A stretch of DNA of 52,378 bases, the filler included, from Squatina squatina (Eukaryota), in the NCBI GenBank assembly GCA_031763465.1. It is 3 parts of 3 records of this genome, joined end to end, with 100 filler letters (N's around TTAATTAATTAA, not from the genome) between each part and the next. Parts side by side here need not be neighbours in the genome. Positions count along the whole stretch, not along the records: positions 1 to 21,297 come from JARFOE010000192.1; 2 more parts are not named here. One strand, given 5' to 3'. The stretch's first letter is position 1. Every line of letters begins with the position of its first letter. Below, piece by piece: positions 1,699-41,114 of the stretch. Made by a program: the position numbers and the translations under genes. The notes below the pieces were generated by a model. It was not told where the DNA came from and ran no database searches. It worked only from the letters and a program-made list of their open reading frames with translations.

Positions 1699-1848
1699 GA
1701 GATAATTAAAGTGATGCAAGGCGTGGCAGTTGGTCTGCAGACACTTCACAACTCAAACATTGTTCATGGCGCTCTCCATCCGCACAATGTGTTTGCTGTA
1801 AACCGTGAACGTGGAATTGTTGGAGACTTTGATTTTACCAAGACTGCT
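1699..1848 (+). CDS. STK31: STK31 (TDRD8) kinase-like domain, internal exon (150 nt, phase 0/0)
   Basis: Flanked by tttaaag| and |gtaagt. Encodes EIIKVMQGVAVGLQTLHNSNIVHGALHPHNVFAVNRERGIVGDFDFTKTA, matching recalled human STK31 ETLKVMKGVAQGLHTLHKADIIHGSLHQNNVFALNREQGIVGDFDFTKSV. Confidence 0.92.
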
Positions 1849-4255: not shown

Positions 4256-4381
4256 GATCAGCGTAATATTGTCAGCTGGATGGTAGCTGATAAGCTGGAT
4301 CTTGTAGCCCCAGAAGTCAGAAGTGGCCAATCTGCTGTCCCTGCAACTGATGTTTTTGCTTATGGATGCCTGCTTTTGTGG
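4256..4381 (+). CDS. STK31: STK31 kinase-like domain, internal exon (126 nt, phase 0/0)
   Basis: Flanked by cgtag| and |gtatgt. Encodes DQRNIVSWMVADKLDLVAPEVRSGQSAVPATDVFAYGCLLLW (subdomains VIII-IX; human ...SPELKMGKPASPGSDLYAYGCLLLW). Splices in frame to the 1699-1848 exon. Confidence 0.92.
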
Positions 4382-4468: not shown

Positions 4469-4537
4469 CTGAATTTCCCTAAGAAAGACTTCACAGTTAA
4501 TGCTGATGGAACTCCAGATTTTAGTGAGCTAAGTATG
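4469..4537 (+). CDS. STK31: STK31 internal exon (69 nt, phase 0/0), after an 87-nt intron
   Basis: Flanked by ttttgcag| and |gtaagc. Encodes LNFPKKDFTVNADGTPDFSELSM, aligning without gaps to recalled human LSVQNQEFEINKDGIPKVDQFHL. The terminal exon was not found. Confidence 0.85.
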
Positions 4538-10773: not shown

Positions 10774-10858
10774 TCCACAGATGCTGCCTGACCTGCTGAG
10801 ATTTTCCAGCATTTTTTGTTTGTCTTCTAGGTTCCAGCATCCGCAGTATTTCGCTTCT
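10774..10858. repeat. Arm of a common shark palindromic repeat (Penelope-associated)
   Basis: tccacagatgctgcctgacctgctgag...ttccagcatccgcagtatt is the reverse complement of the left arm at 13952-14027. Confidence 0.65.
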
Positions 10859-11139
10859 GTCTATGTCATCAGTGTCCTCTCACTGATCATGCTGAAGGCC
10901 CTCATCCAGTGGTGGCTCCATGTGTTGTCTCCGTTGCAGAGAAAGGTTATGCAGCATAAAGCAAATCTCAATCGTATGGAATGTTCTTTGTGGGCTTTAT
11001 TGCAGGAAACCATTGGACATGTCCAGGCATTTGAGGACTCTAATAGTTTGCTCGATGAGAGCTCTAGTTGAACCATGGAACTGACAGCTAAGTATGGCTT
11101 CCTAAGAGGAGTCAGGAACTATGTGTGCAAGGAATAGCC

Positions 11140-11445
11140 CTTATCTCTGAGCAACCAGGCTTTACCTTGGGACAAAACATTGGTGGGGTGGTGGACAATT
11201 GATGCAATATAAAAGCATCATGCCGCTGCCAGAAAAATGGGTACAGACCTGCAAGATGCACTGCTGGTCATCACATGTCGATTGCACATAAATAGAATGG
11301 AAGTCTTTGTGATTCATGCAGGCACTCACATTGTAGGAAGGACTTTGCTGTGTGACATGGATGCAGTCAGTGACACCCTGGACTTGGGGGAATTCTGCAA
11401 CCTGTGCGGACCCTAGAGCTCTATCCCACTGTTTCAAGATATTCA
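11140..11445 (-). mobile_element. PIF/Harbinger transposase fragment, degenerate
   Basis: Reads AEFPQVQGVTDCIHV...NHKDFHSIYVQSTCD...FSGSG, a decayed form of GFP.V.G.IDCTHV...NRKGFHS.NVQ..CD (DDE_Tnp_4 family). Confidence 0.8.
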
Positions 11446-11464
11446 TAAGGGAAGTGATGAATGA

Positions 11465-11700
11465 ATGGGGATAATTCCTCTGCTCTTCTTCGAAATAGTG
11501 CCATAGGATATATTACATTCACCTGAGAGAGCAGACAGGGCCTCAATATATCGTTTCATCCAAAAGACAGCACCTCCGGCAGTGCAGCACTCCCTCAGTA
11601 CTGCACAGGAGTGTCAGTCTAGATTTTTGTGCTCAAGTCCCTGGGGTGGAAACCCACAACCTTCTGACTAGAGGGTGTTACTAACTAAGCCACAGCTGAC
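11465..11700 (-). mobile_element. tRNA-headed Deu-type SINE (SacSINE1-like)
   Basis: The reverse complement gives a tRNA-like head (gtggcttagttagtaac...tcagaaggttgtgggtt) followed by a Deu-like core (gcagtactgagggagtgctgcactg...caggtgaatgtaa...tggcactatttcgaag). Confidence 0.8.
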
Positions 11701-12289
11701 ACATGGAAGCTCTACATTTCTTTCTGTCTCACAAACTAACTTCAAAATCTACATCTATAGATGTCATTCTCATTGTTCCAAATGGGCTAGAATCAGAGTT
11801 CCACAGAATATCCAACATCTGTGCCATACTTACGTCTTTAATCTTCAGCCCCATTTAAAATCAGAGATTTATCAAGCTCTTTTAAAGGACCTAATCAGCA
11901 TTGCTTAGCTGTCTCCCTTTTTAATATCTTGAAGTTTATAGCAGTGGTTTCATTATTTTTTGGGTCAGAAAAAATCCTGGCAGTGGGGATTGTGACAGAT
12001 ACAGGTGAACAGTAGATATATGGCAACAATTAAATTGAAAGAGTAATGATCTCAATATAATCTCTATGTCTACTGAATGATAATAAACAGTTAACTACAG
12101 AAAAATAGCTCACTCAGTCTATATTACATGGCAAAGCTTTCATTATGTTGCTGACATTTGGCAAACATGTTAAGCTGCAGGCTCGCTGCATGACAATTAA
12201 AAACATTTAACTCCTGTTGCTTTGTGAGGCACTCTCAGCCTCTTTATCTCTTGCTGAAAAAGACAAGGTATGTATGTAGCAGACTACAG

Positions 12290-13075
12290 CTTCTTTTACG
12301 CTAAATAGGCAGCAGAAATCATATCAAGGACAAGAAAAAATAAATAGGAAGAACTGAGGTAGGAAAGAGGGAATAACTGGTTGGGGTTTGAAACAAATAA
12401 ATGAGGAGAAATGAACCTGGCTAGCAAAAAAACAATATTGACTAATGGGTTTGTAAGGAAATAAATAAATGGAGAGCAGGCTTGATGAAATAAATGAAAA
12501 TTAAGAGGAAAAGCTGAAGTTGTAAGGAGGGCTGGCACTGTGGAGCGAAGCAAGAAAGGATAAAACTTTACTGGCACTATCAGGAAGAATGAAGAGAGAA
12601 TAGGCACAGTAGGAGGGGCTTCAAGACGTTGTCATTGAATGCGAGAGAAAGAAACTTGGAAGATGGTATTTGTTGAAATATAAAATTTGGGGAAATTGAA
12701 CCAGGCAGGTGCACAAGGAGAGCATGCAGCTGAATTTGAAGTTGCTGCAAAATGATGCATACCTAGTGATGTAGCAGAAGTGGGAGTTGGTAGCGAATGT
12801 TAAGAACACTTTGTGTGGACTGGTCAGCGATGGCAACTGCAGACATAGGAACTACAGTAGGTGAAGCATAAGGCTGGGATGGGAAGCAATAACTACTGAA
12901 GTGGACAGGAGATGAGGTTCAGAATAGTGTGGCTTGGGGGAGGAAGGATGAGAGGAGTGGTAACCAGACTTGTGGTTTAGGTACTTTGATCTGTAGCTTA
13001 TGATTTGTAGCGGTTGGCGGCTGCCAGTGGAATGCATGTGTAAGTTAAAGAAGGTGGTGAGGTTGGATTTGTTTC
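12290..13075 (-). mobile_element. Highly degenerate LINE (L2-like) remnant
   Basis: Purine-rich + strand with the same texture as the other minus-strand L2 copies. No clean protein motif recovered. Confidence 0.35.
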
Positions 13076-13719
13076 TGTTCAGTAACCCTGTAAAATAATA
13101 CTGTCAAAGATTAATTATAAAGTAGTGAAAGCATCAAACATAATTAGGATTCCTGCTTGCTACTGTTCAGTTAAAATTAACCTGCATGTGAGCTAGTTGG
13201 GTGGAATAAATTTGTGTATGAGCCAAATTGCATATGAGCAAGTGGACACAGAAACAGTGTAGTTAGACAAATTTTCTATCATATTAATAGATAATATGGA
13301 TGTAAACCCAAGAGAAGTTGGGATGAGTATTGTAATCCTGTTGCATATAATGGGTTTTATGCAAAATTTCCTATAAATTACTGAAATAAAAACTTAACTG
13401 GGGACAATTATGCCAGCACTAAGCAAGGATCAGCTCAAATAAAATTGATGATTTAGAACTTGGTAAAACGTGGAAGTTTGCTTAGGAAGGTTTTGCATGT
13501 TTTCATGAATTTTAACCGCTTACTAAAATGTATGTGGTCAATTTTTTATTCTTTCATGGTTACTGAAATGCATATAGTTATTGTCTCATCTGTAGAACTA
13601 TTTGTTTTTCATTTAATTTTAATGGTAAATATTTTGAGTCCAGAAACATTCATCAATAAAGTCCCAAATGCACCTATCTCCATATTAGTGCAATTCTAAG
13701 TGGTTTGTTTCTTTCACAG

Positions 13720-13862
13720 AGAAGAAGATGAGTGTTCAGAGTTGCGTTCAGACCTTAGCCACAGCCAACAGGAGGCAAACGAAGATTGTAGAAGTATGGA
13801 TCAGGATCAAACCTCTGTCTCTGTGCCTGAGAACCAATCAATGATGGTCTCTGCAGATATAG
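13720..13862 (+). CDS. MCC: MCC (mutated in colorectal cancer) isolated internal exon (143 nt, phase 2/1)
   Basis: Flanked by ctttcacag| and |gtaagc. Encodes (R)EEDECSELRSDLSHSQQEANEDCRSMDQDQTSVSVPENQSMMVSADI, versus recalled human MCC REEDEYSELRSELSQSQHEVNEDSRSMDQDQTSVSIPENQSTMVTADM. Confidence 0.88.
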
Positions 13863-13949
13863 GTAAGCTGATCCTAGAACACCTGAAAATGTTTTATTCG
13901 ACATCAGCAAAATGTGCTCTAAAAGGCTAGATTCATAAATAAAACCAAA

Positions 13950-14115
13950 GCAAGGTACTGCGGATACTGGAAATCTGAAATAAAATCAGAAACTGCTGCA
14001 AATACTCAGCAGATCAGGCAGCATCTGTTCTGATGAAAGGACATTGACCTGAAAAGTTCTGCTTCTCTCTCCATAGATACTGCCTGACCTGAGTGTTTGC
14101 AGCATTTCCTATTTT
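13950..14115 (+). repeat. Palindromic shark repeat with a hammerhead-like core (Penelope-associated)
   Basis: Inverted arms gctgcaaatactcag...tcaggcagcatctg and catagatactgcctgacctgagtgtttgcagc flank CTGATGA-aagg-acattga-cct-GAAA. Confidence 0.65.
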
Positions 14116-15340: not shown

Positions 15341-15684
15341 CAAANNNNNNNNNNNNNNNNNNNNNNNNNNNNNNNNNNNNNNNNNNNNNNNNNNNNNNNN
15401 NNNNNNNNNNNNNNNNNNNNNNNNNNNNNNNNNNNNNNNNNNNNTGTACAGTCAGGCTGAATCTGTTTACAATTTCGCTGCGTGTCGCGACCAGTTCCTC
15501 TCTGTACGTCTGATCTACAGTGATCGTTCCAGCAAGTGACAGTGCTTTAGGTGAGGACTTTACATCGCCGGGGAATGCCAATGATCATTTCCCTTTCCAG
15601 CTGAATAAAGACCACGTTTTTTTTATTGTCACGAACTGCAGCGGGTTTGGAAAATGTTTCGCTTACTGTACTTTTCCCTTTCAG

Positions 15685-15872
15685 ATGCAGGGCAACATGA
15701 AGTTTTGGCTGGGAGTGTTCACATTTGCATTTTGCATGCTGATCTGCATAGGGACTTTTGCCGATGCCTACCCTCGCAAGCCTAACTACCCCGGGAAAGG
15801 CGCTTCTGCAGAGGACTTGGCCAAATATTACTCCGCATTGAGGCACTACATTAACCTCATCACACGGCAGAG
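15685..15872 (+). CDS. NPY: Neuropeptide Y precursor, exon 2 (188 nt; signal peptide plus mature peptide residues 1-35)
   Basis: The acceptor ttccctttcag| directly precedes the ATG, and the donor AG|gtgagg splits Arg35, as in other NPY-family genes. A 28-aa signal peptide [28 protein letters not shown] is followed by [35 protein letters not shown]. Ala14 and [16 protein letters not shown] indicate NPY rather than PYY (Pro14). Exons 1, 3 and 4 were not found. Confidence 0.95.
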
Positions 15873-16639
15873 GTGAGGCCACATGCTCCCCGTGTGACAG
15901 ATCAGTACTGTCAACAGGCCCAGTTGGGTTTGGTGCAATGAGACAGGGTATTATTGCTGCACGCTCATTTCTTTGGGGCTTAGCACAAAACCAACATGAG
16001 GGAAAGGGAGAGAAAGAAATATACATCACGACAGTGTAGAGTACAACTTCCCATTAAAAACAAAGTCAAAGCTTTTCAATCTATATATATTTCTGTAAAT
16101 ATTGTATTTAATAAATTAGCTGCAAACAACTCCAGGTTTCGACACTTTTAAAAACATTTCTCGCAACACGTCTCGTAATTATTTGAATGTATTCATGTTT
16201 GCATTAGATCTGGTTAGTGATTGATGCAGGCTCAGTGCTGGGCAGTAGTGCACGCCTGTCCGTGGCCTTCGCTGGGTTTACGAAAGCGACAATCCAAGAT
16301 TGCGTAAAATAACACGCGGCAACACTTTTCCACTTCATCTGGTTTAATGACTAAAATGTCACCTGCAGCGCGGGAAGGGTAGAGACCCATAAAATAGGGG
16401 CGGGGCAGATCACAACACCTTCATCTCTTTTTATCCATACAAAATACTTCAAAATACAGCAAAATCTCGTGCTTGTTTGTTTTTTAAAAAATTATTCAGC
16501 TTACTGATATAAATAAATTGTTTTTGGTAGCGATTGAATCCTGAGAGACACAAATAAGGTGCAATATCAATCAAAACCTTCCTTTTTTGTCATGCCAGTG
16601 TAGCTAAGAATAAAAATCACTACCTGCTCCTGACTCAGA

Positions 16640-16935
16640 GACTCCCCTAAATTACCTTAAGAACCACCCAATTATTCCAGGACAGCATGTCTATCGCATT
16701 GATAGCACAGACATGTCAGGAGCTCCTCAGCTAAGAGTGAGCTTCGAGCATGGAAGCGGCTGCACAAAGTTTCAACTGCAAGAAAGAAAAGGGAAGGATG
16801 CATTCCAGAGTCCTGAATATGCACATAATCAGATTTGAGGTCATCTAGACCACAATGCTTGGTGGGGAGGCCTTGGAACTGGCTTTGAAAATCCAGGCAA
16901 TTATGGCTTGTGCCTTGTGGCTTCAGCACTTGGCT
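16640..16935 (-). mobile_element. Degenerate LINE fragment (L2-like)
   Basis: Resembles decayed L2 ORF2 C-terminal sequence on the minus strand. Support is weak. Confidence 0.35.
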
Positions 16936-17247
16936 GAGTCTTCCCTGAAGTTAAAGTGAATCTAAAGGAATGCAAGCTAGAGTTTTGCCCTTTTATTCAA
17001 TCGTGCCTTATTGTGCAATTAAGCATTTGGGAACATTTATATACATAAGTGAAAAAATATATTCTGGAAACAATAACCACTGTGGCAATACAGACTGTAC
17101 AGTACTTTTTATAAAGTGGCTGAAATTGCGATCCCCCCAGGTGTGTANNNNNNNNNNNNNNNNNNNNNNNNNNNNNNNNNNNNNNNNNNNNNNNNNNNNN
17201 NNNNNNNNNNNNNNNNNNNNNNNNNNNNNNNNNNNNNNNNNNNNNNN

Positions 17248-18830: not shown

Positions 18831-18947
18831 ATGCAGCAGGTGTTGGACAACCTCACTGAGTTGCCCATCTCTACAGGAGCTAAGGAGATAGACCTCATCT
18901 TCCTCAAAGGAATAATGGAGAGTCCTATTGTCAGATCTCTTGCCAAG
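18831..18947 (+). CDS. MPP6: MAGUK p55 subfamily member, probably MPP6/PALS2 (MPP2 not excluded); first L27-region exon (exon starts at 18826 or 18829)
   Basis: Flanked by ctcag|cag|ca ATG and AAG|gtactg. Encodes MQQVLDNLTELPISTGAKEIDLIFLKGIMESPIVRSLAK (human MPP6 MQQVLENLTELPSSTGAEEIDLIFLKGIMENPIVKSLAK). Placement next to NPY favours MPP6. Confidence 0.75.
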
Positions 18948-20517: not shown

Positions 20518-20670
20518 GCTCATGAGCGACTTGAAGAAACCAAACTGGAAGCTGTGAGAGAGAATAATGTGGACCTTGTGAAGCAAATTCTTGAAGATAT
20601 CAGCTGCATAGTTCATCACAATGAGACTGCAACAGAGCTGGCCAAAATTCTAAAGGAACCACACTTTCAG
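20518..20670 (+). CDS. MPP6: MPP6/PALS2-like (or MPP2) second L27-region exon (153 nt, phase 0/0)
   Basis: Flanked by ctacag| and |gtacag. Encodes AHERLEETKLEAVRENNVDLVKQILEDISCIVHHNETATELAKILKEPHFQ, which directly continues the 18831-18947 exon. Confidence 0.75.
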
Positions 20671-21297
20671 GTACAGTCTGCAGTTATATAGTATTTCCTT
20701 CTGGGTTTCCTATATAAACAACATTTGTACAATAGACCAATAATAAACCTTCTATCAACTGATGCTGCAGGGGACACAGGACATCAGCAACTGACCAGGG
20801 ATGGCCTCACCATGGCCAGATTTGCTTCATTGACGCTGTACACCCTGGCTGCCACATGATGCACCAGGTTGGCAACACTCCACACCAAAACCATAAAGCA
20901 ATCCTGCAATGCCCAAGCCATTCCTTTCATTCTCATTAACAACTGCGAGGGTTACCATTATGTCTCACCTTCACTGCAACTCACAAAGCCATTTCCAAAG
21001 GTGCACACAGATCTGTCCAAGAACACAAAGTGTTGAAAAAAAAATTCAATGTTTGACAGCACATTAACAGAAACTTCACTTGAAAATTACATAAAACACC
21101 TAATCAGAACTTGGCAGATACAATGGCAAGAGTGCAAGAGAGCACCTTGCACCTCCACCCATCCCTCTCTGTCTACATTGCCACTTCCCCACCTCACTAG
21201 CCACCCCTCACACTAACCTTCATTCTAGTCCAATCATACCAACTAATAACACACAAGGGGAACTATAGCTATTACATTTTTAAATATTAGCTTAATT

Positions 21298-21397
21298 NNN
21301 NNNNNNNNNNNNNNNNNNNNNNNNNNNNNNNNNNNNNNNNNTTAATTAATTAANNNNNNNNNNNNNNNNNNNNNNNNNNNNNNNNNNNNNNNNNNNN
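21298..21397. other. Assembly spacer: 44 N + TTAATTAATTAA + 44 N
   Basis: A 12-mer carrying stops in all six frames, centred in a 100-base gap. An identical construct occurs at 34609-34708. Confidence 0.95.
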
Positions 21398-22396
21398 CTC
21401 CAGGCCAAATCCAAGGTCACCTCGACCTCCATCACCGAGCTGCAATATGCAGACGACGTCTGCGTGTGCGCACACTTGAAATCCGAGCTTCAAACTACCG
21501 TCGATATATTCACTGAGGCATATGAGAGAATGGGCCTCACACTGAACATCCGCAACTCAAAAATGCTACACCAGCCCACTCCTGCCACACTCCACCAATC
21601 CCCAAACATCAATATCTATGGCAAGCCCCTGGACAACATGGAACACTTCCCATACCTCGGGAGCCTCCTCTCAGCCAAGGCAGCCTTCGGGTGCTTGAGT
21701 TAGAGTGTTTGAAGACAAGGACCTTAGACCTGGCACCAAGCTCATGGACTACAGGGCAGCAGTGGTACCCGCCCTCCTGTATGCATCGGAGTCATGGACA
21801 CTGTACAGCAGACACATCAAAGCACTAGAGAAATACCACCAATGCTGCATCCACAAAATCCTGCAAATTAATTGGCAGGACAAACACCCCAATGTCAGCT
21901 CCCTCACTCAGGCCAACCTCCCCAGCATCGAGGCACTGGTCACGCTCACCCAACTGCAATGGGCCGGTCACATCATCTGCATGCCTGATTCAAGACTCCC
22001 GAAACAGGCACTATACTCTGAACTCAGACATGGGAAATGTCTCCGAGGAGGGCAGAGGAAATGCTGCAAGGACGCCTTCAAGGTCTCATTGAAAAAATGC
22101 AACATCCCCACCGACACATGGGAATCCGTGGCCCAATACTGCCTGCAATGGAGAAGAAACACCCGTGAAGGCACCAACCGCTTCGAGTCTCTCCAGTGGG
22201 AGCATGTGGAGGCCACATGCAGGCTGTGGAAGGAGCGCACAGCAACACGAGCATCCCATCCGCTCGCCTTATCAAGCACCACCTGCCCCACCTGCGACCA
22301 TGTTTGCGGATCCCACATCGGACTTTTCAGCCACCTCAGAACCACAACCCCGGAGTGGAAGCAAGTCATCCTCGACCCCGAGGGACTACCTAAGAA
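21398..22396 (+). mobile_element. RTE-clade LINE, 3' portion (RT C-terminus to 3' end), disrupted
   Basis: Contains ELQYADD at about 21436-21456, GLTLNI.., FPYLGS, VPALLYASESW, QLQWAGHIICMPDSRLPKQALYSEL and a terminal CPTCDHVCGSHIGLFSHLRT. A stop/frameshift lies near 21700. Confidence 0.9.
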
Positions 22397-25300
22397 GGAC
22401 TTCAAGGTTTAGACTTATATTTTGCTATATCTGTAAAGTTGATGATTTACATCTGATGGAGAACTTTACAATGACAGTTTTACTGGGGAACTTCTCTTTA
22501 AATTTCCAGAGCAACATGTACCTTCCAGGTTCTGTGAAAAGTAATCCCCTGTTTGCTGCCCAGGTCTCTTGTGATGCATTTACCAATTTCTAAACTTCAA
22601 CTTCCATCTGATGATTCAGATTAATAATCTGGATTTGGAAACCACCTCTTGATTATTAAATTTTATACCAAATGTTTCAGGTAAAAAGGGATCAGGACCA
22701 TTATCATTTTTGTTCCTGGTGTTTAACATTCCCCACCCTTCCCCTCTCCTTCACTCCAAGCCAAGCTGTATCAGCCCTTGACTCTACCCTACATCCTTAT
22801 CACTAAGCAGCTGTTGCTGTTTTGTTGCCTGCACTAACTGAGTGGCCTGTCAGACACAGTGGTTTCAGCTCCCCAGCCTCTAATTGTCATCATCTTGATG
22901 AAAACAATCTGGTGCTGACAGGTCTTTCTGACCTCTGACCCAGGCTGGGAGATGAGGGCTGCAATGCATGTGCCATGTCATCAGTCAGGTGCATCTCATT
23001 GCCTCCTGAATGAAATACAGACATTCGAGAGACTTGACTACATATGGCAATGATATCCTTGTTTACTAAGTTAAGCAATTATTCAGTTGTTGGTCTTTGC
23101 TTAATATATGCTTTGCTCACTTTGCATCAACAGAGAGCACCGCACAACATACATCTCTATACCTTGTTTTTTCTTGGCATTTTATTTTGCTGCAGAGCTT
23201 TATGACACAGCTGGTGACACCTGGAGAAGCCCGCTTTATACCATATAAACCTCATGAAACAAAACAAAAAAAAATGTCTGAGCGCTTTCTTTAGTTCTGA
23301 CCTGCTGCGTTCATCAGCAGCTACAATCAGTGCATTTGCAGCAAGGTTGCCCCCTCATCTGCCGCACTGAAGGAATAACATTTCTTCCAAGTGTTATTTA
23401 CTCAGAAGCATCTGTTTTCTTTCACAATTGTCAAAAAATCTCTTTTGACTTGGCTGCTCGTCCTGGGCCAGAAAACTCCGACCTCTGGTTTCTTAGCAAC
23501 CAGGATGCTCAGCAGCCAGTGTGGCTGCAGAGGATGAGCTTGGAAAGGTCAATTGGTTGTGGCTGCCTCGTCCATTTGTGGTATGTTGTTGTTGTTGACG
23601 TACCCATTTCCAGTGTTACACTGATGCACCAGGATTAATTTTTATTTGTGTTTGCGGTTTACTTGACTAAAATAAAAAATACAAGCAAGACTTGAGGGGA
23701 AGTCTGAGTGAAAGGCAGCCATGGAAAAAAAGGAGCTGAAACTATTGAAATCATCTGACTGCTGACTATCCTGCTGTGCTGCCTCGGGCAGTTACATATT
23801 TCCATTGAGTTATTTTATGATCAGGCCAGTATGTTATTGAAATATTATCCCTTTAGACGAGCTCATTGTGGTAGAAGATGACAGACTCTCAGCGCCGTGA
23901 TTTAGTCCACAGACCAAATGCAAGATTGGCCCCAGCTTAGTGTTGAGTGAGTCTGGTCACTGTTACAATCCAGCACTCGAGGGTGAAAGCAACCTAGAGC
24001 GTCGGAGTTAAAAGGGAATCTTACTGTCGTACATGAAAGGGGTCGAAGCACCTGCTTCCATTACAGGCAAACACTCTCTTCACATCTACTAGACGAAGAT
24101 GACTAGTACTTTTTTCACTAACAGCTATTATTTTAAAGAAATTATCAAAATACTGATTGAAAGAATTTGCAGATACAAATCCATAATGGAAAAAGACAGC
24201 TTATTTTAACTCTCATGGGAGTTTAAGTGCACAGTTCACTACAAGTTTAATTCACCAAAAAAAACTTGCGAACATCAGTATATTTATATAACTCTCACTA
24301 CCCAATGCTAAAACTGATACATGGGGGCAAATTACCTCTAAACTACACTCTTTTAAATGGAGGAACCTAGAAAGCAATGTAATCAGGCTTCCGACAGCTA
24401 TTCCTTCACTGATAGTTCTCACGTTAAGTTTCCTTACCATCGCACCATCGGTGCATTGGAGTGGATTAAGAGTTTATAGAATCAATGTTCCTTTGAAGGA
24501 TGCTCGCGTGATCTAGCCTTTACACCACTGCAGTGCAAATATAGCCTTTTAGTAAGGGGTCTGTACAAGTGCAAAATATTTGTGGCTAGTAACACACAGA
24601 GACCAGACGCTTACAGGCTTCCTGTGTATTTTAACCGAATTAGAACAATTACTTTAGGCAATAAACTTTAGCGCCTCCGCGGNNNNNNNNNNNNNNNNNN
24701 NNNNNNNNNNNNNNNNNNNNNNNNNNNNNNNNNNNNNNNNNNNNNNNNNNNNNNNNNNNNNNNNNNNNNNNNNNNNNNNNNNCTATGCTCTCACTTCTGG
24801 GAGCTGGGTTTGTATCCAGCTCAGTCTAATGGGATGAATGTGTTCTCTATCTGTTGGCTTTAAGGCTCCTATATCACCTAACGGCAAGTAAATGTAGGTA
24901 TACGTGACAAAGCTGTCTAATGGTAATGCACTGAAAATCTCAGACAGGCCACAGGATTGGTGCAGTAAGTGCTCAGGCAGAGTAGAGGGAGTTTCATTCT
25001 GCATTAAGCGTGTGTGTTATCTGATCTGTGAGTGCTTGCAGTTGGCCCTGGGAGTCCAAAATGGGCAAATATTACATTTCCCAAGTAACATTCCTCACGT
25101 TGATGGAAGTTGACAGTATATTAATGCAGCAGGTTAGCAAGGTATATATTATTTGATTTTAAAATATAACCTGTTAATATAACACAAATTGCATAACACT
25201 TTGGACCTGTGTTGCAAATTCAAGAATCCCTCAAGTCCAAGGGCATGAATTCAATATGTCTTCAGGACATACATTACACAGCATTTGAAAATGGCAGTGG

Positions 25301-34608: not shown

Positions 34609-34708
34609 NNNNNNNNNNNNNNNNNNNNNNNNNNNNNNNNNNNNNNNNNNNNTTAATTAATTAANNNNNNNNNNNNNNNNNNNNNNNNNNNNNNNNNNNN
34701 NNNNNNNN
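34609..34708. other. Assembly spacer: 44 N + TTAATTAATTAA + 44 N
   Basis: Same construct as 21298-21397. It marks the start of the long ungapped contig. Confidence 0.95.
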
Positions 34709-40109: not shown

Positions 40110-41114
40110 AAAGCAACCCACGTCAGAGAGTGTACAGGCAGAGGGTTGATTTTGAATCAACAGAGGAGTTGTGAGTCAGGAGGATGCAGTTTAATAAAGC
40201 TGCAATTCGCAAACTATTTGACATGTTAAACGATGACCTTCAAACACGTTCAAAGACTGTTACTGCCTTGTCAATCGTCACCAAGGTAACGACAACACTG
40301 AACTTCTTTCTCTTGGGTTCATTTCAGACAATCACTGGTGACATTTCAAGGATCTCCCAGAGTGCTGCGAGGTTCTGCATTCACCAGGTCACGGATCCCA
40401 TAATGTGTAGAGTCTCTGAGTTCGTATATTTCGAATTGTCCATTCAAAATCAAAATGAGAAGGCCACAGATTTTTATAGAATTGTTGGCTTCCCAATAGT
40501 GATTGGGGTGGTAGATGGCACCCATGTTGCATAGATAACACCACTTTGTACACCTATGACAGAATACAACAGGAAGGGATGTCATTCAGTAAAGGTAATG
40601 ATTGTCTGTGAGCACAAATGAGGATCCAAGCTATGAATTCAGGTCAGCGGGGAAGTGCTCAGGACTCCTTCATCCTCCATAATTCGAACATGCATGACGA
40701 TCTCAGCACATTTCCTCCAAGAACTGCATTGGTATCGGGAGACAAGGGCTATTCACTAAACCATACCGCAAGACTGATAATCAAGCACAGGAGAGATATA
40801 ACCATACACATGTGGCAAGTGGTCGAGAGGACAATCGGGCTTCTTAAATCCCACTTCCGTCGACAGGACAGTTTATGGGGATTTTGAAATACTCCCCTGT
40901 GAAAGTGGGAAGGATTGTGGTGGCATGTTGTGCATTGCATAACTTTGCCTTGAGGGAACGTTTGAAGATTAACCCTGGAGATGAGCTGCCTTTTGAAATG
41001 GAGGAAATGTATGATGACAATGTACTTGTGGCACAAAGTAATGGAAAAGAGGCAACTCCAACTCAAAGCAGAGCTGTGAGGGAACACCTCGTGCTCGATA
41101 CCTTTATCACATAA
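40110..41114 (+). pseudogene. PIF/Harbinger transposase (HARBI1-like, DDE_Tnp_4), disrupted
   Basis: Successive frames read PRQRVYRQR, GSFQTITGDISRISQSAA, GFPIVIGVVDGTHVA, YNRKGCHS, GSAQDSFIL, GDKGY, VERTIGLLKSHFR and IVVACCALHNFAL. There is an in-frame stop at 40532 and several frameshifts. The 5' boundary is approximate. Confidence 0.92.

Follow-up and report, generated by a model that had tools for sequence, protein, structure and literature searches.

A basic N-terminal arm encoded by the neuropeptide Y exon of Squatina squatina

Exon 2 of the neuropeptide Y (NPY) gene in the Squatina squatina assembly GCA_031763465.1 encodes a mature peptide with a strongly basic N-terminal arm, set apart from the canonical cartilaginous-fish peptide by five clustered residue changes in an otherwise conserved exon. 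NPY is an appetite and stress hormone and a textbook example of extreme conservation. The charge-shifted feature is present in the assembly and its pattern is non-random; the comparison of family sequences given below singles out this NPY by the extent of its charge shift and by the residues Tyr7 and Lys10. The reading that we favour, with slightly better than even confidence, is that the exon belongs to a functional NPY whose N-terminal arm has evolved in a locally accelerated and probably selected manner, the peptide likely remaining a Y-receptor agonist with a predicted shift in subtype preference. If so, this natural allele, which combines a reversed arm charge with an aromatic residue at a selectivity position, would offer a ready probe of the arm's role.

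The NPY exon and its surroundings

The exon lies in the part of the window that derives from record JARFOE010000192.1, the window being the whole stretch of DNA analysed (52,378 nucleotides, filler included). Its translation matches the Pfam family Hormone_3 (PF00159) at 46.8 bits against a curated cut-off of 28.7, and its five top protein matches, among the best 120 listed of 182, are cartilaginous-fish NPY precursors; pig NPY is the closest relative of the peptide among solved structures. A phylogenetic tree places the exon within elasmobranch NPY with support of 95/93 and separates NPY from PYY at 100/100, values that come from 63 columns and a rough bootstrap and are not fully settled. The exon architecture is typical of vertebrate NPY, with the signal peptide and residues 1-35 carried in one exon that ends inside codon 35 (Table 1). 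The initial annotation had described the signal peptide, the splice sites, the PP-fold prolines and the distal residues as intact, and so they proved to be: both splice sites and the signal peptide are retained, Tyr1, Pro2, Pro5, Pro8 and residues 14-35 are unchanged, and the residues of the PP fold (Pro2, Pro5, Pro8, Tyr20, Leu24, Tyr27 and the Thr32-Arg35 tail) are all present and, at the level of sequence, invariant in alignment A1. Exons 1, 3 and 4 gave no match in the window by motif search or by tblastn; this is expected because the scaffold is compressed, and their absence is not taken as gene loss. The second Atlas match of 15685-15873 is a cluster of the same family that was automatically named after a monitor-lizard venom peptide. 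That venom peptide is a precedent for the recruitment of NPY-family peptides to new roles, of which there is no sign here.

Table 1. Features of the NPY exon and of its scaffold in the window
Feature	Position	Strand	Remarks
NPY exon 2	15685-15872	+	
AG splice acceptor of NPY exon 2	15683-15684	+	preceded by a pyrimidine tract; spliced contig of relative A (run X5) joins another exon here
NPY signal peptide, 28 residues, intact	15685-15768	+	in frame from the ATG at 15685; one difference from Torpedo P0138
Mature NPY, residues 1-34 and two bases of codon 35	15769-15872	+	translated over 34 residues
GT splice donor of exon 2	15873-15874	+	in organism A, X5 splices here to the Tyr-Gly-Lys-Arg exon
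Variant tract (S3R, D6N, N7Y, E10K, P13S)	15775-15805	+	7 lineage-specific bases
Single contig carrying the NPY exon, N gaps on both sides	15445-17147		tract 330 and 1342 bases from the contig ends
PALS2/MPP6 first coding exon	18831-18947	+	downstream of NPY
PALS2/MPP6 next coding exon	20518-20670	+	51/51 residues identical to catshark record
MCC exon, foreign to the NPY locus	13718-13861	+	contig 10774-14115
Protein-kinase exon	1699-1848	+	upstream of NPY

Upstream of NPY, the protein-kinase exon is accompanied by further kinase-like exons at about 4257-4381 and 4470-4537 (+), and we take these kinase exons to be the 3' end of STK31, a gene that usually lies just upstream of NPY. Downstream, the PALS2 exons differ at 1-4 of 90 residues from each of ten shark records; at PALS2 residue 9 (18855-18857) the window encodes Thr, against Asn in 10 and His in two of the 12 records compared, which is either a lineage-specific change or an error. 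In two catsharks, NPY and PALS2 are consecutive accessions on one record. The position of NPY next to PALS2/MPP6 is weak support for an orthologue locus, given that this scaffold also contains the probably misplaced MCC exon. In a catshark, MCC and the NPY-PALS2 pair are on separate chromosome-sized records, so the MCC contig of the window has probably been misplaced by scaffolding; an assignment of the exon at 13718 to STK31 was rejected, as its match is to MCC. At three sites this MCC exon sides with the squalomorphs Heptranchias and Pristiophorus and with two rays (4/4) against 7/7 galeomorph records.

The spacers at 21298-21397 and 34609-34708 are identical, each made of 44 N, a 12-letter all-frame stop linker and a further 44 N, and are probably joins between records, with the NPY scaffold ending at 21297; the PALS2 exons stop after the first spacer. 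Two other observations in the window are the remains of a reverse-transcriptase retroelement at 21398-22400 (RVT_1, below cut-off) and a DDE_Tnp_4 transposase fragment at 40612-40884, the Pfam scan of the window having covered 54 of 432 open frames.

Five clustered changes and their distribution

When compared with the peptides of Torpedo (P0138) and catshark (P0137), the mature peptide differs exactly by S3R, D6N, N7Y, E10K and P13S, the five differences in the first 13 residues that had been noted at the outset. The reference is the commonest mature NPY of cartilaginous fishes, identical in 10 of 24 records, Torpedo included. Six bases within 31 nucleotides change residues (15775, 15776, 15784, 15787, 15796 and 15805) and a seventh is silent (15801). 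The initial annotation held that each residue change was a single base away, which is wrong for codon 3: at 15775 as well as at 15776 the four relatives described below all carry a base other than that of the window, and this codon therefore took two steps. Net charge over residues 1-35, counted as K+R-D-E, stands at +5 in the window against +1 in the canonical peptide, bearing out the annotated gain of about +4, and the charge of the N-terminal arm (residues 1-13) moves from -1 to +3, with three of the five changes raising it. This value is at the top of the comparison set, in which the maximum is +4 among 69 distinct family peptides drawn from 146 stored records. Tyr7 and Lys10 each occur in none of these 69 other peptides, Arg3 in two, Asn6 in four and Ser13 in nine; as a counterpoint to the favoured reading, the two residues absent from the set could be harmful. 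The peptide had also been called unusually divergent, a description that holds for its unmatched charge but not for how far it has diverged: of 24 other cartilaginous-fish records, six (four skates and two hemiscylliid second copies) depart from the consensus at 5-7 of the 35 positions.

Contigs of all four relatives (organisms A-D, from three studies) carry the canonical base at each of the seven changed positions, and in a spliced contig of organism A from a further study a canonical exon 2 sits joined between an upstream exon and the Tyr-Gly-Lys-Arg exon. These contigs were aligned at 80% likeness, the relatives being about 9-11% different from the window, and the differences between them and the window were taken from the best-supported 40 of 134 rows, or from 8 of 11, 8 of 13 and 11 of 14 in the spliced-contig set. 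In run X14 of a relative, the match is to a PYY-like piece only. None of the 15 sequencing runs listed holds half of the query words, and the variant bases are known from the assembly alone. A search of the open-access literature found no published description of this NPY variant.

None of the P values that follow is corrected for the genome-wide search by which the case itself surfaced. Seven of the eight exon changes fall within 31 nucleotides (scan P 0.0004 in the exon and 0.0015-0.004 over the exon and its flanks), and codon position 1 holds five of the seven changed bases (P 0.045). The changed positions all fall among the 12 of 35 that vary in the family (5/5, P 0.0024), and also all among the 14 of 35 altered in other cartilaginous fishes (P 0.006); because they are confined to variable positions, random error or uniform decay is disfavoured. 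The 29.3 nonsynonymous sites of codons 1-13, a segment picked after the data had been seen, contain six changes (against the flank rate, Poisson P 1e-4 to 3e-4), compared with none in the 49.3 nonsynonymous sites of residues 14-34 (Fisher P 0.002) and one in the 67.3 of the signal peptide. The intron flanks contribute 14 sites at which all four relatives agree against the window, or 17 at which three of four do, in 568 bases, a rate that may be too low, as it is drawn from the 40 best-supported of the 134 difference rows; synonymous changes in the exon (1 in 40 sites) resemble the flanks, at about 2.5-3%.

When a neutral rate is assumed instead, the N-terminal excess gives P <=0.01 at rates up to 6% and P 0.08 at 10%, and the unchanged helix gives P <0.02 at 8% or more (P 0.007 at 10%). 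Uniform neutral decay fails, because low rates leave the N-terminal excess unexplained and high rates leave the unchanged helix unexplained. The annotated proposal of selection rather than decay is thus upheld as far as uniform decay and random error are concerned, given the variable positions and the lack of change at 14-34. Positive selection, its other half, is not established, because dN/dS over the whole exon lacks significance (7:1 nonsynonymous to synonymous, P 0.46) and the segment 1-13 was chosen post hoc. For the whole exon, the nonsynonymous count against the flank rate gives P 0.07-0.15. Three mutational routes were considered and rejected: GC-biased conversion, as only two of the seven tract changes go from A/T towards G/C and three go away; a PYY chimera, as 14/14 shark PYY records differ in other ways; and template switching or a local donor, as no 11-mer of the tract recurs elsewhere in the window.

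Readings of the altered arm

In the functional peptide that we favour, the five substitutions would have turned an acidic arm basic. The precursor would be cut after Ala28, the Tyr36-amide would be supplied by exon 3, which has no match in the window, and the peptide would adopt the hairpin typical of the PP fold. Contacts with the receptor core would be made by the unaltered helix and tail, in the manner seen in the structures of human Y1R and Y2R, and the changed residues would point to solvent or to the outer loops of the receptor. In cryo-EM structures the NPY helix packs on ECL2 (PMC9067930 and PMC8844075), and the first of these sources describes Y1R as anchored by NPY Tyr1 and Pro2 and residues 1-20 as barely contacting Y2R (PMC9067930). 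The key residues in alanine scanning, according to a review, are Pro2, Pro5 and positions 19-20 and 27-36 (PMC3563083); none of those within residues 1-35 is changed in the window peptide, and the same is true of the critical residues of a second paper. The review also presents position 7 as a Y1-selectivity site, with Tyr in human PP and Phe in the engineered, Y1-selective pig analogue [Phe7,Pro34]pNPY (PMC3563083), a pharmacology obtained on mammalian receptors and with an analogue that also carries Pro34. The elephant shark, a cartilaginous fish, retains all seven ancestral Y receptors (PMC3591787). By analogy, Tyr7 would mimic the aromatic residue of pancreatic polypeptide and may favour Y1-type receptors; with Gln34 retained, Y2 binding should persist, so the most likely effect is predicted to be a modest shift of preference in favour of the Y1 subfamily, and any gain in membrane or antimicrobial activity would be a by-product.

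The initial annotation also raised the prospect of altered processing at the new Arg3-Lys4 pair. Convertase cleavage there is unlikely, because Pro5 follows and 16 of 17 syngnathid PYY-like records keep the pair. Convertases generally avoid cutting before Pro; a literature search for convertase cleavage before Pro returned no paper.

A more ambitious version of the favoured reading is possible, though we hold it doubtful: that NPY of this shark lineage has been adaptively rebuilt as a strongly basic, Tyr7-bearing ligand, and that the same arm positions, independently remodelled in bamboo sharks and in seahorse PYY-like peptides, form a repeatedly used tuning surface shaped by Y-receptor co-evolution or by host defence.

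It is unlikely that the exon represents a diverged second, tandem copy of NPY that scaffolding has put at the NPY address, with the canonical copy elsewhere or lost from the assembly and the arm freed to drift or to specialise. Such an arrangement has a parallel in hemiscylliid sharks, since in both species sampled a single chromosome-sized record bears a pair of NPY-like records; all four copies are changed at positions 3 and 13, and three of the four at 6 and 7 as well. However, the window contains a single NPY-like exon, each of the four relatives yields one NPY-exon contig and one PYY-like piece (contigs, it must be said, drop rare variants), and in skates, whose NPY diverges at 5-7 positions, the records listed show no sign of a second gene.

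We attach little probability to an artefact, whether a miscalled or misassembled tract or a chimera, arising from the fragmented assembly of short reads. The tract sits in the middle of its contig, keeps the frame, touches variable positions only (P 0.0024), is unlike PYY, shares no 11-mer with the rest of the window and mixes change types in a way unlike deamination, and the adjacent PALS2 exons are nearly identical to those of other sharks. Set against these points are the 25 N runs of the window (16 of them of 100 N), an NPY scaffold of 15 contigs (median 1151) that includes the misplaced MCC exon, the lack of a match among the 15 runs listed, and the absence of the exact 63-residue window sequence among 15 billion proteins.

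Improbable, too, is the reading in which the main target of selection was an additional function in host defence, the peptide acting on membranes through its positive charge. The direction of change suits such a role, with three of the five changes adding to a total shift of +4, and two sources describe human NPY as antimicrobial at micromolar concentrations (PMC11604648) and list NPY13-36, a fragment without the acidic arm, as beating full NPY on Moraxella and Haemophilus (PMC3601409, Table 1). These literature values are nevertheless in-vitro, micromolar ones, and the substitutions leave untouched the amphipathic helix responsible for the activity. By analogy, a higher antimicrobial activity of the window peptide is plausible in vitro only. 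Finally, it is very improbable that the gene is dead or dying, for instance through loss of exons 3-4, and that the changes are neutral decay: the unmatched exons and the fit of the whole-exon nonsynonymous count to the flank rate are outweighed by the contrast between 0 of 49 and 6 of 29 nonsynonymous sites, by the intact splice sites and frame, by a scaffold so compressed that only 2959 bases separate NPY exon 2 from the start of PALS2, and by the coelacanth PP gene, for which the corresponding small 3' exons are missing from the assembly (PMC3591787).

Comparison with known NPY-family peptides

Among the closest known counterparts of the functional, arm-altered NPY proposed here is the canonical cartilaginous-fish peptide (Torpedo marmorata P28674, equivalent to P0138, and catshark P0137), which has the same signal peptide, exon boundaries and PALS2 neighbour and 30 of the 35 residues, but has a charge of +1 and is without the five window changes. 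Mammalian-type ligands share a single feature of the altered arm, the aromatic residue at position 7 of human PP and of [Phe7,Pro34]pNPY (PMC3563083); the Y2-excluding Pro34 is absent from the window peptide, which has Gln34.

Syngnathid PYY-like peptides (P0113, P0118 and the cluster P0313-P0327) carry Arg3-Lys4-Pro5 in 16 of 17 records, reach a charge of +4 and have the same residues 18-35, yet they belong to the teleost PYY lineage rather than to NPY and differ from the window at residues 6-16. More broadly, 20 percomorph PYY-like records range from +2 to +4, and shark PYY records are neutral in 14/14.

The altered positions recur among sharks. The NPY-like pairs of Hemiscyllium and Chiloscyllium (P0005, P0140, P0127, P0130) are changed at the same positions 3, 6, 7 and 13, and the Hemiscyllium peptide, the nearest mature peptide at three differences, has D6N and P13S in common with the window. 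Hemiscylliid copies differ in keeping a charge of +1, in coming from paired genes and, for the second copy, in being changed in the helix as well. Because the MCC exon of the window groups with non-galeomorphs, the likeness is probably convergent; the literature search found no paper on the hemiscylliid pair. Lamniform NPY has lost acidic residues, by E15A in Cetorhinus and Carcharodon and additionally by E10V in Carcharodon, which reaches +3 (P0002, P0131). Skate (Rajidae) NPY shows 5-7 differences from the consensus, including position 10 and, in 3 of 4 records, position 13, but these are conservative substitutions distributed along the helix, and neither skate nor lamniform NPY attains +5. 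As judged from these records, comparable divergence is already present in other sharks and skates, and the Squatina squatina exon, alongside the changes in hemiscylliids, skates and lamniforms, shows that shark NPY is less static than has been assumed.
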